From the NCBI RefSeq assembly GCF_001677475.2, contig NZ_CP015229.1: DNA of 64,000 nucleotides; one strand, given 5' to 3'. Source of the DNA: Escherichia coli. GTDB taxonomy: Bacteria > Pseudomonadota > Gammaproteobacteria > Enterobacterales > Enterobacteriaceae. Position 1 is the first letter of the stretch; every line of letters starts with the position of its first letter. The notes under the pieces were generated by a model. It searched no databases and was not told where the DNA came from. It worked only from the letters and a program-made list of their open reading frames with translations. This document shows, in pieces, positions 6,297-48,934 of the stretch. Made by a program: the position numbers and the translations under genes.

Positions 6297-7395
6297 TCAT
6301 AACCCTGCTTTCAAACTTGCTTCGATAAATTGATCCAGGCTGCCGTCCAGCACGGCCTGCGTGTTACGGGTTTCTACCCCGGTACGCAGATCTTTAATGC
6401 GGGAGTCATCAAGGACATAAGAACGAATCTGGCTGCCCCAGCCGATGTCGGATTTGTTATCTTCCATCGCCTGCTTCTCGGCATTTTTCTTCTGCATCTC
6501 CAGTTCATAAAGCTTCGCTTTCATCTGCTTCATGGCCTGGTCTTTGTTCTTGTGCTGGGAACGGTCGTTCTGGCACTGGGTCACGATCCCAGTTGGGATG
6601 TGAGTAATACGCACCGCAGATTCGGTACGGTTAACGTGCTGACCGCCCGCGCCGGACGCGCGATAAACGTCAATGCGCAGATCCGCCGGGTTGATTTCGA
6701 TATCAATATCATCATCAACTTCCGGGTAAACAAACGCAGAGCTGAACGACGTGTGGCGACGACCGCCGGAGTCAAACGGGCTCTTACGCACCAGGCGGTG
6801 AACGCCAGTTTCTGTACGCAGCCAGCCGTAAGCGTAATCGCCGGAGATTTTGATCGTCACGGATTTAATACCCGCCACTTCACCTTCCGACTCTTCGATG
6901 ATTTCAGTTTTGAAACCACGCGATTCTGCCCAGCGCAGATACATACGCTCAAGCATGCTCGCCCAGTCCTGTGCTTCCGTACCGCCAGACCCCGCCTGAA
7001 TATCGAGGTAGCAGTCGGCGCTGTCATATTCGCCAGAGAACATACGGCGGAACTCAAGCTGCGCCAGTTTTTCTTCCAGGGCGTCGAGTTCAGCAACGGC
7101 TTCGTTAAAGGTTTCTTCGTCGTCAGCTTCTACAGCCAGTTCCAGCAGACCAGAAACATCTTCCAGCCCCTGTTTCATTTGGTCGAGGGTGTCGACAACG
7201 GCTTCGAGGGAGGAACGCTCTTTACCCAGCGCCTGTGCGCGTTCGGGTTCGTTCCAGACATCCGGCTGTTCCAGCTCGGCGTTTACTTCTTCCAGACGCT
7301 CTTTCTTGGCGTCGTAGTCAAAGATACCCCCTAAGAACGTCGGAGCGTTCCGTGAGGTCCTGAATGCGATTATTTACCGGATTAATTTCAAACAT
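6297..7395 (-). CDS. prfB: peptide chain release factor 2, made by programmed +1 frameshift (365 aa)
   Basis: Frame 0 is ATG 7395..7393 through Leu25 (7324..7322) then in-frame TGA (7320..7318); the +1 frame continues 7319..6297 and matches ORF 6297..7178. Site reads CTT AGG GGG TAT CTT TGA C with the internal SD AGGGGG. Confidence 0.95.
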
Positions 7396-43781: not shown

Positions 43782-44801
43782 TTACCTGAAAGCAACAGTA
43801 GCCATAGCTAACGTCGTGTCGAGCATTCGGTTAGCAAAGCCCCATTCGTTATCGCACCAGACCAACGTTTTGATCAGGTGTGCACCACTGACCCGGGTTT
43901 GGGTGCCATCGACAATGGCACTGTGCGGATCGTGGTTAAAATCTACAGAGACCAACGGCAATTCCGTATAGTCAACTATACCATGAAATGCACCTTGTGC
44001 TGCTTTTTGCAGCAACAGGTTGACTTCATTGGCTTTTACAGGTTTCTTCACCGTCACGCTTAAATCGATTGCCGTCACATTTATGGTTGGCACACGTACC
44101 GCAATCGCCTCAAAGCGATCGTTAAATTGCGGAAAAAATCGTGTGATACCGGCGGCCAGTTTAGTATCGACCGGAATGATCGACTGGCTGGCTGCCCGGG
44201 TGCGACGCAGGTCAGGATGGTATGCATCAATAACCTGTTGATCGTGCATGGCGGAGTGAATTGTGGTCACAGTGCCGGACTCAATACCGTACGCATCATC
44301 TAACAATTTGATGACGGGAATTATGCAATTCGTGGTACAGGAAGCGTTAGAAACGATGCGGTGTTCCGCACGAAGTTGATCCTGATTGACGCCGTAAACA
44401 ACGGTCGCGTCGAGATCGTTACTGCCAGGATGTGAAAAGAGCACTTTTTTAGCCCCGGCGGCAATGTGCGCTTCGCCATGCTCGCGGGAGCCATATACGC
44501 CGGTGCAGTCGAGGACTACATCAACGCCAAGTTCACGCCAGGGGAGCGATTGCAGTGAACGTTCATGCAATACGCGGATGGCGTCATCACCAACAAAAAG
44601 TTGATCGCGTTCCTGTCGTACTTCCCATGCAAAACGGCCATGGCTGGTGTCATATTTCAACAAATGCGCCATGCCCGCAGCATCCGCCAGTTCGTTGATT
44701 GCCACCACGGTAATTTCCGCCCGACGTCCGGATTCATACAAAGCACGAACCACATTACGCCCGATGCGACCGAAGCCATTTATCGCTACGCGTACGGTCA
44801 T
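43782..44801 (-). CDS. epd: D-erythrose-4-phosphate dehydrogenase, 339 aa
   Basis: ORF 43782..44885; start at [15 protein letters not shown] (ATG 44801..44799); GAPDH-family Rossmann motif. Confidence 0.9.
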
Positions 44802-45028
44802 AGATCTCCTGCAAGGTTTTCCCTGAGCAAATTTGCCAGACAGAGTAATCCAGCAAATCGTCCGGGGAAACCTTACCTGTCGCAAACTGCGACTGATTGG
44901 TTAATTGTCGAACATTTAATCGACTGAAACGCTTCAGCTAGGATAAGCGAAACGTGGAATAAAAGGAATGATTGTCCAGTCAAAGAAGACAATTATCTGA
45001 CTTACGTCACGTTTTCAGCCCCGCCCCT

Positions 45029-45044
45029 GTGGAATTTATTCCAC
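45029..45044. promoter_or_regulatory. candidate operator: inverted repeat GTGGAAT-TT-ATTCCAC, with an extra GTGGAAT half-site at 44954..44960
   Basis: Perfect 7-2-7 inverted repeat in the divergent epd / PPC-ECF operon spacer; no binding factor identified. Confidence 0.3.
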
Positions 45045-45172
45045 TTTGCAGAATCACGAATAAGCGTAGCAAAATCTTTTCGTTGTGCCGTCACAAACCC
45101 TGACTTATATCAGAATATGACTGATGCAGCGTCGATATTATCCGCAATACGTCCGAGTTTCGGAGTACTCCA

Positions 45173-45604
45173 ATGATGACATTGCCCTACCCATATTCTT
45201 CCTCCGCACGCTTTTACTCGCTGCGCCTGCTCCCCGGGCAGGAAGTTCTCTCCCAATTGCGCGCCTTCACGCAGCAACAACAACTCCACGCCGCGTGGAT
45301 TGCAGGTTGTACCGGCAGTCTGACTGACGTCGCCTTACGCTATGCCGGACAAGAAAACACGGCCCTACTAAGCGGTAAGTTCGAAGTCATCGCATTGAAC
45401 GGCACGCTGGAACAGAGTGGTGAACATCTTCATCTCTGCGTTTCCGATCCACACGGCACGATGCTTGGCGGTCATATGATGCCCGGCTGTACCGTGCGGA
45501 CCACGCTTGAACTGGTGATCGGCTGCCTTGAGGAACTGGCGTTTAGCCGCCAGTCTTGCGCGCTTTCTGGTTACGACGAGTTGCATATTTCCCCCGTTAA
45601 ATAA
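45173..45604 (+). CDS. PPC/DUF296-like domain protein, 143 aa (first gene of the island operon)
   Basis: ORF 45173..45604; GGAG 9 nt upstream; domain assigned from memory of the family (AAWIxGCxGSL, HLHLCVSDPHG, GGH..PGCTV). Confidence 0.7.
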   Translation: MMTLPYPYSSSARFYSLRLLPGQEVLSQLRAFTQQQQLHAAWIAGCTGSLTDVALRYAGQENTALLSGKFEVIALNGTLEQSGEHLHLCVSDPHGTMLGGHMMPGCTVRTTLELVIGCLEELAFSRQSCALSGYDELHISPVK

Positions 45605-45626
45605 CTACTTTCAGAGAGGTTTTCTT

Positions 45627-46205
45627 ATGGCGCGTCGCCACTTTTCCAGTCAGGCGTTGGTGTTGATCGTTATATCTATCGCCATCAATATGATCGGCGG
45701 GCAACTGGCCAGCATGGTCAAATTACCTATATTTCTCGACTCCATCGGCACACTTATTAGCGCGGTACTGCTTGGTCCGGTGATCGGGATGCTGACCGGC
45801 TTACTGACCAATTTACTCTGGGGATTGCTAACCGACCCGATCGCCGCCGCATTTGCGCCCGTCGCGATGGTCATCGGCCTGGTCGCCGGTTGGCTGGCGC
45901 GAGCGGGTTGGTTCCGCACCCTGCCAAAAGTTGTTGTCAGCGGCGTGATTATTACGCTTGTGGTAACGGTCGTCGCTGTACCGCTGCGTACTGCGCTGTT
46001 CGGCGGTGTCACCGGTAGCGGAGCCGATTTGTTCGTTGCCTGGATGCACTCAATGGGGCAAAACCTGGTGGAGTCGGTGGCGATTACGGTGATAGGCGCG
46101 AACCTGGTCGATAAAGTTCTCACAGCGGTGATTGTCTGGCTTTTACTGCGTCAGCTGCCGATTCGCACCACGCGCCATTTTCCGGCAATGGCAGCCGTGC
46201 GCTAA
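45627..46205 (+). CDS. ECF-transporter substrate-specific (S) component-like membrane protein, 192 aa
   Basis: 3' part of ORF 45528..46205; start at MARRHFSSQ (ATG 45627) with GAGAGG upstream; about 6 hydrophobic helices. Confidence 0.65.
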   Translation: MARRHFSSQALVLIVISIAINMIGGQLASMVKLPIFLDSIGTLISAVLLGPVIGMLTGLLTNLLWGLLTDPIAAAFAPVAMVIGLVAGWLARAGWFRTLPKVVVSGVIITLVVTVVAVPLRTALFGGVTGSGADLFVAWMHSMGQNLVESVAITVIGANLVDKVLTAVIVWLLLRQLPIRTTRHFPAMAAVR

Positions 46206-46913
46206 ATGCATCCGTTTACCTCATTAACGCTGTGGGCGCTGGCAGCCTGCACCACGCTAATCCTGCCCGCGCAGACCATTTTGCCGGTCTATAGCGCGGC
46301 GACCTTTCTCTGCCTTATTGCGTTAAAGTCCACGCGGCGGCGAGCAAAATATGTCGTCTGGCTGATGTTCTCGCTGGGGGCTGGACTGTGGCTGGTACAC
46401 GGTGGCTGGCTGACAGAATGGCTAAGCGGCACGCCACGCTCGCCAGAACGGTGGGCGCATGCTATTACGCTCTGGTTGCGGATTCTGGCGATTGTTTCAA
46501 CCTCGCAGTTGTGGATGCAATTCGTCCCCGTGCAACGTTTTATCCGCGCTTTGTTTGCTTCTCGCCTGCCGCCAGGCGTCGCTTATCTGTTTGCCGGGCC
46601 GTTATTGGTCGTTGAGCAGTTAAAACGGCAATTAGCGATTATTCATGAAGCGCAGCGTGCCCGCGGCGTGCCTCTGGATGAGGGCTGGTATCAACGTTTA
46701 CATGCGATGCCCGCGTTAATTATTCCGCTAACACACAATGCGCTAAACGATCTTGCTGTCCGTGGTGCGGCGCTGGATATGCGGGCATTTCGGATCCACA
46801 GCCGACGAACAACGTTGTGGGCACCAGCCGATAGCCCCCTACAACGCGTAGCGCGTTACACCATGATCTTGCTGATGCTGGCAGAATTCGGAGCGTGGAT
46901 ATGGTTACGTTAG
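46206..46913 (+). CDS. ECF-transporter transmembrane (T) component, CbiQ/EcfT family, 235 aa
   Basis: ORF 46206..46913; start abuts the previous stop (TAAATG); C-terminal coupling-helix motifs QRARG and AVRGAA. Confidence 0.75.
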   Translation: MHPFTSLTLWALAACTTLILPAQTILPVYSAATFLCLIALKSTRRRAKYVVWLMFSLGAGLWLVHGGWLTEWLSGTPRSPERWAHAITLWLRILAIVSTSQLWMQFVPVQRFIRALFASRLPPGVAYLFAGPLLVVEQLKRQLAIIHEAQRARGVPLDEGWYQRLHAMPALIIPLTHNALNDLAVRGAALDMRAFRIHSRRTTLWAPADSPLQRVARYTMILLMLAEFGAWIWLR

Positions 46914-47578
46914 AACAGTTTCGCTATTGCCCGACAAACTCAACGCATCCTCCGTTCTGTTATGACTTTCACTATGTCAAACCGGGGATAGTCGCCATCT
47001 TTGGTGACAACGGCAGTGGCAAAAGTACGCTGGCGCAACTGATGGCGGGCTGGTATCCAGACTTTCTACCAGGAGAGATAACCGGCACGGGGACACTTCT
47101 CGGTACGCCCATTGGGCATCTCCCGCTTAATGAACAATCCGCCACCATCCAGCTCGTCCAGCAATCGCCCTATTTGCAGCTCTCCGGCTGTACCTTTAGC
47201 GTGGAAGAAGAAGTTGCCTTTGGGCCAGAAAATCTGTGTCTTGCTGAAAAAGAGATTATGGCGAGGATTGATGCCGCCCTGACTCTGAGCGAGTGCCAGC
47301 CGTTGCGCCATCGACACCCGGCAACACTCTCCGGTGGAGAGACACAGCGCGTGGTCATCGCCTGCGCTATCGCGATGCAGCCAAAACTATTAATTCTTGA
47401 TGAAGCCTTTAGCCGCCTGACGCCGCAGGCCAGCGAAATGCTGTTGCAGCGCTTACAACACTGGGCGTTTGAACGTGGTTCGCTGATTATTCTTTTTGAA
47501 CGTCATCGCACACCTTTCCTGAACTACTGCCAGCAAGCGTGGCAACTGCAAAACGGAGCGCTCCAGCCACTATGTTAA
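46895..47578 (+). CDS. ABC ATPase (EcfA-like), 227 aa
   Basis: ORF 46895..47578; Walker A GDNGSGKST, signature LSGGETQR, Walker B LLILDEA; overlaps the T gene by 19 nt. Confidence 0.85.
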   Translation: MDMVTLEQFRYCPTNSTHPPFCYDFHYVKPGIVAIFGDNGSGKSTLAQLMAGWYPDFLPGEITGTGTLLGTPIGHLPLNEQSATIQLVQQSPYLQLSGCTFSVEEEVAFGPENLCLAEKEIMARIDAALTLSECQPLRHRHPATLSGGETQRVVIACAIAMQPKLLILDEAFSRLTPQASEMLLQRLQHWAFERGSLIILFERHRTPFLNYCQQAWQLQNGALQPLC

Positions 47579-48249
47579 CGTTAAATCAGGTAACTTATCG
47601 CTGGCCTGGCGCGGCAACGGATTGTCTTTGCGACATTTCTCTGCAACTCAAACAAGGCGAATGGCTGGCGCTGACCGGCGACAATGGCGCAGGGAAATCG
47701 ACGCTGTTACGAGTAATGGCAGGTCTTCTTACGCCCACAGCCGGTACAGTTATGCTGCAACAACAGACGATGAAAAACCTGAAAAACCGCCAGCGCGCGG
47801 CAAAGATTGGCGTACTGTTTCAGGAAGCGGAAAACCAGCTTTTTCACAGCACCGTCGCTGACGAGATCGCATTTGGTTTGAAACTGCAAAAATGCCCGGC
47901 GGATGAAATCACTCAACGTACCCATGCTGCCCTGCAATGCTGTCAGTTAGCAGACACTGCCAGCGCGCACCCGTTGGATCTGCATAGTGCGCAGCGACGG
48001 ATGGTCGCCGTCGCCTGCCTGGAAGCACTCTCTCCGCCACTATTGCTGCTGGACGAGCCGAGTCGGGATTTTGACGAAAATTGGTTGAGCGTGTTTGAAA
48101 GCTGGCTGGAGAAGTGCCGCCAGCGAGGCTCGAGCGTCGTAGCAATCAGTCATGACGCCGCATTTACCCGGCGTCATTTCTCTCGTGTGGTGCGACTGGA
48201 AGATGGTGTAATCAGGAACGTTAATCCACCAGACGATATTCACCCGTAG
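47572..48249 (+). CDS. ABC ATPase (EcfA'-like) with a degenerate signature motif, 225 aa
   Basis: 3' part of ORF 47539..48249; start at MLTLNQVTY (ATG 47572, ATGTTAA overlap with the upstream stop); Walker A GDNGAGKST, Walker B LLLLDEP, H-loop ISHD; signature position reads LHSAQR. Confidence 0.8.
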   Translation: MLTLNQVTYRWPGAATDCLCDISLQLKQGEWLALTGDNGAGKSTLLRVMAGLLTPTAGTVMLQQQTMKNLKNRQRAAKIGVLFQEAENQLFHSTVADEIAFGLKLQKCPADEITQRTHAALQCCQLADTASAHPLDLHSAQRRMVAVACLEALSPPLLLLDEPSRDFDENWLSVFESWLEKCRQRGSSVVAISHDAAFTRRHFSRVVRLEDGVIRNVNPPDDIHP

Positions 48250-48934
48250 CGGTCATCATTAAAGTCAAATTTGCAGGCAGACTCTCTTCCAGCACCCGGC
48301 GAACATTCGGCCCGTCGGTACGGTCATAAAAAGCTTCTGCGTCTGCCAGTGATAACCCTCCCGCCAGCTTGCGCCCCACCAGTCGTTCCCGCAACGCAGT
48401 AGCTGGCGCATTGATAAAGATCGAGAAATCACAAAATTGCGCAAGCTGGCACCACTTCTCGTCGTCCAGCAACAACCAGTTTCCTTCGACGATGACGAGT
48501 GGTGCGGTAACGTGCAACGCATCTTCAACAGGATCATGCTTTTGTCGATCATACTGCGGCCACGCACAATCCCCTTCCACTACCTGGCGCAGGTTTTCCG
48601 CCAGTTTCGCTACATCGAATGTCTCTGGTGCGCCTTTGAAGGGGCGCAATTGATGCGCATCCAGCCAGCTATTGTAATGGTGAAAACCATCCATCGGGAG
48701 TGTCTGAATAGCGGGTAGTTCCGGGTCTTGTTGCGCGAGATATTCCCAGAAGGTGGTTAGGGTAGATTTACCCGTCCCCGGCGGAGCGCAAAGAAAAACC
48801 ACCGTACGCCGCTGCGGATTTACCGTCTGTAAGGCCGCCAGCATACGCAGTAGCGTTTTATGAACATTCTCAATTTCATCATCAGAGTACTGCGCCTGTA
48901 CCTTTAGTCCATTCACCGTCAGTTCGATTTTCAC
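48221..48934 (-). CDS. yggC: P-loop nucleoside/pantothenate kinase-like protein YggC, 237 aa
   Basis: ORF 48221..48934; P-loop GTGKST; 3' end overlaps the convergent EcfA' gene by 29 nt. Confidence 0.85.
   Translation of the reverse strand: MKIELTVNGLKVQAQYSDDEIENVHKTLLRMLAALQTVNPQRRTVVFLCAPPGTGKSTLTTFWEYLAQQDPELPAIQTLPMDGFHHYNSWLDAHQLRPFKGAPETFDVAKLAENLRQVVEGDCAWPQYDRQKHDPVEDALHVTAPLVIVEGNWLLLDDEKWCQLAQFCDFSIFINAPATALRERLVGRKLAGGLSLADAEAFYDRTDGPNVRRVLEESLPANLTLMMTATGEYRLVD

Follow-up and report, generated by a model that had tools for sequence, protein, structure and literature searches.

The window analysed here, the whole 64-kb stretch of DNA to which the lines above belong, is from Escherichia coli, and the region of interest is the spacer between two divergent transcription units. 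To the left, on the minus strand, lies epd-pgk-fbaA, whose first start codon, the epd ATG, is at 44802; to the right of the spacer a plus-strand gene for a PPC/DUF296 protein is followed by four ECF transporter genes in the same orientation (S, T, A and A') and then by yggC, again on the minus strand. The genes of the right-hand operon are:

45173..45604, plus strand: gene for a PPC (PF03479/DUF296) protein, first of the operon (Pfam E-value 2.5e-26)
45627-46205, plus strand: ECF S component, part of the ECF block 45627..48249
46206-46913, plus strand: ECF T component, part of the same block
46895-47578 and 47539-48249, plus strand: two ECF ATPases, part of the same block

The initial annotation took this operon for an inserted island, a label that does not survive comparison with other genomes. 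The divergent epd/PPC-ECF order is also found in Salmonella enterica, S. bongori, Citrobacter koseri, C. freundii, Klebsiella oxytoca, Atlantibacter, an Enterobacter, Leclercia, E. albertii and E. whittamii, and the arrangement is syntenic in 7 genera. Inspection of the window annotation and a repeat search revealed no integrase or recombinase, tRNA or direct repeats flanking the operon, and no matching repeat at its right end. The transporter operon has long stood next to epd in conserved synteny, an arrangement common across genera, and is not an insertion. Within E. coli the arrangement is polymorphic, the operon lying beside epd in 3329 of 5425 complete genomes and being absent from K-12. 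K-12 is homologous to the window as far as 45010 and then again from 48290, inside yggC, where identity is only 91.6%; the two E. coli arrangements are therefore old alternative haplotypes. To the right of the epd CRP site three architectures can be distinguished, which we call PPC-type, yggC-type (as in K-12) and tkt-type.

The spacer contains a short perfect palindrome, with which the following features are associated:

45029..45044, unstranded: 7-2-7 palindrome GTGGAAT-TT-ATTCCAC, read directly from the sequence, centre 45036.5
45029..45035, plus strand: left arm GTGGAAT, in a fast-evolving segment and not conserved
45036..45043, plus strand: TTATTCCA, to which conservation of the palindrome is confined; it spans the spacer and the larger part of the right arm
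45036..45063, unstranded: 28-bp heptad/dyad array TTATTC-N3-ATTC-N2-GAAT-N3-GAATAA, centre 45049.5
45012..45035, unstranded: G+C-rich stretch that separates TTATTCCA from the epd CRP site, hypervariable in sequence and fixed in length in the alignments

The palindrome itself, cccctGTGGAATttATTCCACtttgc, consists of GTGGAAT (45029-45035), TT (45036-45037) and ATTCCAC (45038-45044), so that all 7 of 7 arm positions are complementary in the window. It precedes the PPC start codon by 129-144 bp and that of epd by 227-242 bp, and its centre falls at about -103.5 relative to the epd P0 transcription start site (TSS) and, on the PPC side, at about -111 relative to the predicted one. A further, distal copy of GTGGAAT at 44954-44960 is 213-219 bp upstream of PPC and 152-158 bp upstream of epd. 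The initial annotation had proposed that the palindrome is a dimeric operator controlling one or both transcription units, with the distal copy as an extra half-site; both elements are present as it described, and its distances to the start codons (PPC ATG 45173, epd ATG 44802) hold.

As patterns, neither the palindrome nor the 7-mer is above chance. GTGGAAT occurs 9 times in the window, against an expectation of 8.28 +/- 3.16, and perfect inverted repeats with 7-nt arms and spacers of 0-10 nt number 101, including 9 with a 2-nt spacer; at least one such repeat is found in 20% of simulated 370-bp spacers. If the palindrome were an operator, further promoter copies of the site pattern TGGAATNNATTCCA would mark its regulon. 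When the 64-kb window was searched for the 16-mer pattern with up to 2 mismatches this copy only was recovered, and GGAATNNATTCC, allowing up to 1 mismatch, is likewise present at this locus alone; in the literature neither the 14-mer nor TTTATTCCAT turned up under the name of a site, the search giving unrelated matches only. The 9-mer TGGAATAAA occurs in inverted orientation at 44955-44963 and 45035-45043, but sharing a 9-mer over 370 bp is nothing unusual, about 0.5 being expected by our own arithmetic.

The left-hand side of the spacer is occupied by a promoter described in K-12. The published epd promoter string ACATTCCTTTTATTCCACGTTTCGCTTATCCTAGCTGAA, with a TSS 132 nt before the ATG (PMC2759082), maps onto the window with the P0 TSS at about 44933-44934; Cra covers the -10 box and TSS of this promoter, and CRP activates epd from a class I position (PMC5888115). 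The corresponding features in the window are:

44940..44945, minus strand: epd P0 -10 hexamer TATCCT, from the promoter of PMC2759082 mapped onto the window
44923..44938, unstranded: Cra (FruR) operator ACTGAAACGCTTCAGC, invariant in all loci and overlying the -10 hexamer and TSS
44996..45011, unstranded: CRP site TCTGActtacgTCACG, class I, for epd P0, centre 45003.5 at about -70.5, the exact assignment being a probable one
44954..44960, unstranded: distal GTGGAAT, in the -35/-10 spacer of epd P0, reading ATTCCAC at about -27 to -21 on the minus strand
44956..44969, minus strand: GGAATAAAAGGAAT, the conserved block of epd P0 that covers -35 and spacer, unchanged in 65 of the 79 unique epd promoters and falling in invariant columns of the locus alignments

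ACTGAAACGCTTCAGC matches the Cra consensus. [quoted passage not shown] 2005, as cited in PMC2759082; PMC5888115), and the window matches it exactly or almost exactly in TSS, -10 hexamer, Cra operator and CRP site. The palindrome, by contrast, lies beyond the described P0 elements, at about -103.5, on an allele without a counterpart in K-12, which reads GTGGGAAGCTTTATTCCAG instead. The distal GTGGAAT is part of the P0 core promoter and not a half-site shared with the palindrome: it falls within the conserved GGAATAAAAGGAAT, and the two bases that extend GGAATAAAAGGAAT to GTGGAAT vary freely (among the 79 unique promoters, GT 20, GG 15, GA 12, AA 10, GC 7 and AT 6). A promoter and terminator scan of 44750-45250 found nothing. 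TGGAATAAA was also considered as the extended -10 element of an upstream promoter and rejected, most lineages having no -7 T and only one epd TSS having been mapped.

The right-hand side of the spacer carries signals of a different kind, the first two of which are predictions from comparative analysis:

45100..45113, unstranded: CRP-like site CTGACTTATATCAG, predicted class II, of the PPC-ECF promoter, centre 45106.5 at about -41.5
45136..45141, plus strand: predicted PPC-ECF -10 hexamer TATTAT, with the predicted TSS at about 45147-45149
45149..45166, plus strand: leader inverted repeat ACGTCCGAG-TT-TCGGAGT, overlapping the PPC Shine-Dalgarno sequence GGAG

From these sequences we predict that the PPC operon is driven by a class II CRP-dependent promoter. 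The CTGACTTATATCAG site is retained in every PPC-type locus and also precedes PPC in Buttiauxella and Serratia, TAnnAT is kept across genera (TATTAT, TATGAT, TAGAAT, TATCAT) at a fixed distance from it, and both CRP-like sites of the spacer, including that of epd, in which it is conserved in all loci, keep TGA-N6-TCA. The arms of the leader repeat are invariant in all PPC-type loci, and also in Buttiauxella and Serratia, where the operon sits elsewhere; 43.5 bp separate the start of the repeat from the CRP-like centre in 42 of 44 sequences, and its fold, a 5-bp hairpin of -6.5 kcal/mol, is not exceptional. The likely controls of PPC-ECF are this CRP-like site and the Shine-Dalgarno leader repeat, 60-130 bp further right than the palindrome, which corrects the assumption that the palindrome is the operon-specific signal.

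Orthologous spacers were gathered by three routes: a genome scan with the single PPC protein (7 loci), exact-protein look-ups in ten genera, and a search of metagenomes for the invariant Cra-operator/-10 pattern, from which came 120 epd upstream regions. In 23 representative lineages TTATTCCA attains 1.7-2.0 bits per column, an information content computed after anchoring on the motif; it is also the conservation peak of a 29-lineage alignment chosen without reference to the motif, although with lower values, and a 12-species MAFFT alignment agrees, the TTATTCCA columns T247-A254 being invariant or near-invariant. The left arm behaves quite differently, its GTGGA positions holding 0.28-0.51 bits per column, which is the level of the surrounding hypervariable segment, and being replaced by GCGGAAT, TTGGAAT, GCCATTT, GCCCGAT, GCTAAAT and others. 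Across 27 sequence variants the complementarity of left to right arm spans 1-7 of 7, with 1 match in Leclercia, 2 in C. koseri, 3 in C. freundii, 4 in K. oxytoca, 5 in S. enterica and 6 in E. whittamii, and is perfect only in E. coli and in one further lineage, L044. The dyad is imperfect even within Escherichia: E. albertii has the right arm ATTTCAC, E. whittamii and E1V33 have the left arm TTGGAAT, and 150 complete E. coli genomes, ABU 83972 among them, have GCGGAAT. Because the left arm is at background, pairing ranges from 1 to 7 of 7 and the symmetry breaks inside Escherichia, the palindrome is not conserved as a dyad in orthologous loci, the outcome that the initial annotation had named in advance as counting against an operator. 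Outside Escherichia, 5-7 of 7 positions are complementary in L044 (ATGGAAT..ATTCCAT), the Klebsiella pasteurii-like L040 and L105, L139 and Salmonella enterica, and these lineages exceed the random expectation for at least 5 arm matches, which is about 1.3% per independent lineage. What stands of the regulatory proposal is that the spacer is a divergent control region and that the right arm falls within the conserved TTATTCCA; the two-sided dimeric operator is largely unsupported, the left arm not being conserved.

The symmetry that is shared between lineages is centred elsewhere. Dyad symmetry was scanned at every centre of the spacer, with 14 pairs per centre, as a mean over 20 PPC-type lineages. 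The strongest centre, 45049.5, lies 13.5 bp rightward of the initial T of TTATTCCA and scores 7.75 pairs, compared with 3.57 +/- 0.90 over all centres; the CRP-like site ranks second at 6.45, and the palindrome centre scores 5.25. The array around the strongest centre reads TTATTC-cat-ATTC-ca-GAAT-nnc-GAATAA, with 10 of 14 pairs in ten lineages and 8 of 14 in E. coli, in which the inner-left unit has degenerated to TTTG; in Salmonella the right half has decayed. In L139 exactly one TATTCCA unit has been lost, underlining the heptad nature of the array. Its units are kept as sequence and not as complementary pairs, and the E. coli copy could pair at no more than its outer 6 of 14 positions, leaving no inner stem, from which we infer recognition by a protein rather than formation of an RNA or DNA hairpin.

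Spacing indicates to which promoter TTATTCCA belongs. Its centre lies 36 bp from the epd CRP centre in 36 unique PPC-type sequences, 37 bp in 7 and 35 bp in 1, that is, at 36-37 bp in 43 of 44, even though the roughly 22 nt between the two elements cannot be aligned between genera. The same distance is found in yggC-type loci without PPC (K-12, L034, L039, L077 and L060). In L139 a 7-bp deletion shortens the distance to the PPC CRP-like site from 67 to 60 bp and leaves the distance to the epd CRP site unchanged. Conversely, TTATTCCA is absent upstream of PPC where the operon sits elsewhere, in Buttiauxella (beside cmtB), Serratia and Proteus, and the Buttiauxella and Serratia operons retain the CRP-like site, -10 hexamer and leader repeat; the motif does not travel with PPC-ECF to other contexts, which counts against the proposal that it controls the transporter operon. 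Finally, L076 and L115, from which PPC-ECF has been deleted, still possess the block, now beside tkt. Taken together, the fixed epd spacing, the L139 deletion, the absence of TTATTCCA from operons elsewhere and its retention after operon loss place it on the epd side rather than with the transporter operon. A counter-point is that 36-37 bp is about 3.5 helical turns and would set TTATTCCA on the face opposite CRP, which is not classical co-activator geometry. As a separate observation, the retention of TTATTCCA in K-12-type genomes and in L076 and L115 could partly reflect deletion end points rather than function.

The spacer is thus an ordinary regulatory spacer with one conserved, uncharacterised element, and the palindrome is probably a coincidental symmetry beside this upstream element of the CRP-controlled epd promoter. 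In particular, and with slightly better than even confidence, we read the sequence comparisons as indicating a chance symmetry built on TTATTCCA, the candidate functional unit being the TTATTCCA-led block upstream of the epd CRP site. The palindrome would have arisen in Escherichia, where the invariant TTATTCCA abuts a fast-evolving spacer that happens to end in GTGGAAT. The functional element would be the block beginning with TTATTCCA, represented in PPC-type genomes by the 28-bp ATTC/GAAT heptad array and placed at about -106, 36-37 bp beyond the class I CRP centre of epd P0 on its upstream side, with the same spacing whether PPC-ECF or yggC is the right-hand neighbour. Its most likely mechanism would be that of a putative protein-binding site, whose factor may join CRP in regulating the epd-pgk-fbaA promoter and perhaps the divergent PPC promoter as well. 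CRP-dependent promoters with a phased co-regulator site further upstream are familiar from tandem CRP, CytR-CRP, MelR-CRP and AraC-CRP systems. The block resembles such sites in that it is conserved and keeps a constant distance to the CRP site downstream of it, within a divergent region where each promoter has a CRP or CRP-like site; it differs in that 36-37 bp puts it off-face from CRP and that its sequence is not a CRP site.

The foremost alternative, which we regard as unlikely but deserving of weight, is that a homodimeric transcription factor does use the palindrome as its operator, recognising a core of GGAAT-N2-ATTCC. Such an operator could date back to the ancestor of the PPC-type spacer, with decay in some genera, or be a recent gain in Escherichia, and from about -103.5 it would modulate the CRP-dependent epd P0, the PPC promoter or both. 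The 7-2-7 symmetry is perfect in most E. coli, 2458 of 3330 genomes being identical over 44 nt; TGGAAT is kept in E. whittamii and E1V33 despite 12 differing nucleotides upstream; L044 has a perfect ATGGAAT-TT-ATTCCAT in which the outer pair has changed on both sides (G..C in E. coli, A..T in L044); L105 has GGGAAT-TT-ATTCCC; and the palindrome centre lies exactly 33 bp, or three helical turns, from the CRP centre. Against this, the left-arm columns are at background conservation, only 1-3 of 7 positions match in Leclercia, Citrobacter koseri, C. freundii, Atlantibacter and Enterobacter, the dyad is broken inside Escherichia, and the averaged dyad score at the palindrome centre is unremarkable. 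There is no second site in the 64 kb, and no regulator gene adjoins the palindrome, its neighbours being epd, the PPC gene, whose product has a PCC domain only, and the ECF genes. Quasi-palindromes can be perfected by template-switch mutation, and changes that look compensatory can stem from such correction without selection; the palindrome resembles these sequences in being a short A+T-rich repeat whose outer positions change on both sides between lineages and whose arms are not conserved. A two-sided dimeric operator for the neighbouring transporter operon is, accordingly, mostly unsupported.

Comparison with known site types leads in the same direction. IclR/AllR-type boxes have the form TGGAA-N4/5-TTCCA, with N4 for AllR, and the E. 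coli TGGAA-TTTA-TTCCA shares both half-sites and N4 spacing, as the operator reading would have it; its left half, however, is not conserved in other genera, and the locus has no link to glyoxylate or allantoin genes. Operators of the LacI/GalR family are 16 bp long, for example gal OE GTGTAAACGATTCCAC, and the palindrome matches them in length and, in its outer six bases GTGGAA / TTCCAC, resembles the symmetrised right half of OE. It does not fit that family, however, its centre being T-T in place of the typical central CpG, its left half not being conserved and no LacI-family gene lying nearby. As a CRP site (TGTGA-N6-TCACA) its halves GTGGA / TCCAC match at only 2 of 5 positions each about centre 45036.5. 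Consensus sequences for ArgR, RcsB, NarL 7-2-7, MetR, the DnaA box, the AraC half-site, IHF, Fis, sigma-54 and FlhDC, compared by eye, gave none in register.

It is less probable again, though still conceivable, that there is no binding site at all, the palindrome being due to chance and TTATTCCA being kept for a non-regulatory reason, for instance as the relic boundary of exchanged or deleted cassettes (PPC-ECF, yggC, tkt). The chance-level frequency of the palindrome is consistent with this, as are the position of TTATTCCA at the point where the three architectures diverge, the old haplotypes indicated by the K-12 homology gap (45010-48290) and the 91.6% identity beyond it, independent deletions that end just right of the block, and the TTTATTCCAG-N28-CTGGAATAAA inverted repeats of K-12-type loci. 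The 8-mer is, however, invariant in at least 20 lineages beside 22 nt of complete turnover at fixed length, which is hard to explain without selection, and a cassette boundary sits poorly with an operon that has neither recombinase, tRNA nor direct repeats around it, nor a matching repeat at its right end.

Two further readings bring in the PPC protein as a possible regulator. In the broader one, which strikes us as a long shot, the TTATTCCA-led array at 45036-45063, kept at a constant distance from the epd CRP site throughout Enterobacteriaceae, would be the operator of an undescribed regulator, conceivably the DUF296/PPC protein with a new DNA-binding mode, that couples epd-pgk-fbaA to the ECF transporter, and the extra GTGGAAT arm in Escherichia would be a further binding unit. 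In the narrower one, which we consider very improbable, the PPC protein would bind GGAAT/ATTCC repeats, autoregulate the ECF operon and couple it to epd. In favour of the latter, databases name the protein 'PPC domain-containing DNA-binding protein' and 'Putative regulator of transporter operon', and the right half of the 28-bp array is found in PPC-type loci only. The protein is an orthologue of PDB 2HX0/2NMU (6e-69), the Salmonella orthologue, a structural-genomics target named 'putative DNA-binding protein'. The 'DNA-binding' name is nonetheless inherited from plant AT-hook proteins, in which the hook and not the PPC domain contacts DNA, and the translation here comprises the PCC domain alone, with no AT-hook (RGRP) and no helix-turn-helix; it has no NCBIfam assignment. 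Moreover, Buttiauxella, Serratia and Proteus lack the repeats ahead of PPC, and TTATTCCA persists in genomes that have no PPC, which makes the PPC protein, suggested as a possible binder in the initial annotation, an unlikely one. On the side of the narrower reading, a thesis cited in PMC11481890 treats STM3071 as a potential regulator. Our search of the STM3071-3075 literature returned only that thesis citation and an intragenic sigma-54 site in STM3072, and a search for papers linking DUF296 with an ECF transporter found none.

That the palindrome is instead an RNA hairpin, a weak terminator or stabiliser on a transcript crossing the spacer, is scarcely credible: a 6-bp stem with a tetraloop can form on either strand (-8.2 and -8.4 kcal/mol, z about -2.7) and its outer pair co-varies between E. 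coli and L044, but the palindrome is upstream of both the mapped epd TSS and the predicted PPC TSS, the stem is A+T-rich, lacks a U tract and is missing in most genera, 44750-45250 has no terminator-like site, and 44600-45400 has no Rfam match at E-values up to 1.

The importance of the locus is modest. If the TTATTCCA block does bind a factor, it would provide a third input, beside Cra and CRP, on a central glycolytic operon. This would be relevant to the approximately 61% of sequenced E. coli that have the PPC-ECF allele, which is absent from regulatory databases because K-12 does not carry it. For the K-12 spacer, gSELEX with FlhDC lists the epd/yggC interval, the predicted site being inside yggC, and Shimada 2014 predicts H-NS binding together with a constitutive promoter, TTCCCA-16-TGTGAT; that promoter was left aside for the present allele, the window not keeping its -10 hexamer.

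The PPC gene, which opens the PPC-ECF operon and diverges from epd, is preceded by two conserved elements:

45100-45141: CRP-like site CTGACTTATATCAG followed by the -10 hexamer TATTAT, conserved across at least ten genera
45149-45166: leader inverted repeat ACGTCCGAG-n(1-3)-TCGGAGT, overlapping the PPC gene's Shine-Dalgarno sequence, GGAG

The first of these predicts that the PPC-ECF operon has a CRP-dependent promoter of class II; in Serratia the CRP-like site, TGAcccatgTCACA, is a better match to CRP. The second begins 43.5 bp from the centre of the CRP-like site and has invariant arms (TCCGA/TCGGA) around a loop of variable length. It also lies upstream of PPC in Buttiauxella and Serratia, two genera in which the operon is sited elsewhere. 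We regard this leader repeat as the best candidate for control specific to the PPC-ECF operon, either as a 5' hairpin that would mask the site of ribosome binding or, at about +9, as an operator.

The operon itself is polymorphic in E. coli, being carried by 3329 of 5425 complete genomes. Comparison of positions 45010-48290 with 6311-6456 of the K-12 allele (L002) showed that the flanking yggC of the window differs in its last ~70 nt and shares only 91.6% identity with that of K-12; presence and absence of the operon look like old alternative haplotypes and not a recent insertion. The top NCBIfam match of the ECF S component (45627-46205) was 'CD3073 family putative ECF transporter S component', which scored 138 bits where the cut-off is 180. 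In the literature the system is named as transporting cobalt (cbiQ-O2 in E. coli W, PMC3032704), a name given by annotation only.

Where yggC lies beside epd (6337-6384 in the K-12 allele, and L034, L039 and L077), TTTATTCCAG pairs with CTGGAATAAA 28 nt away in a long hairpin just past the yggC stop codon (-12.6 kcal/mol). The hairpin is not followed by a U tract, and its loop, CGTAATAAT, is conserved between genera. The K-12 epd/yggC spacer (L002 6103-6386) contains an RpoD-holoenzyme gSELEX peak with H-NS, and a constitutive promoter has been predicted there by the same authors, TTCCCA-16-TGTGAT (Shimada et al. 2014, PMC3946193). The -35 element of this predicted promoter is the K-12 counterpart of the left arm of the palindrome at 45029-45044. 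The spacer is also among the FlhDC gSELEX entries (PMC9962212).

On the epd side, the G+C-rich segment at 45012-45035 keeps a length constant within 1 bp even though sequences from different genera do not align there, which points to a constraint on the spacing between the epd CRP site and the conserved 8-mer TTATTCCA. Among loci L023-L142 (e.g. L023, L048 and L058), 27 unique epd promoters with tkt as right-hand neighbour share a conserved GGAATAAT, 19-20 bp from the CRP centre and opposite in orientation to TTATTCCA, often followed by TTACAG-N5-GTTACATG and AGGAATAG.

Two lineages (L076 and L115) have independently lost PPC-ECF, such that the tkt terminator now directly adjoins the control region on the epd side, with TTATTCCATATT(G/C)CAGAAT..GAATAA still in it. 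In another locus, L139, an exact 7-bp deletion ~110-135 nt beyond the Cra-site pattern has removed one TATTCCA unit and left TTATTCCAGAAT, as slippage between tandem heptads could produce.
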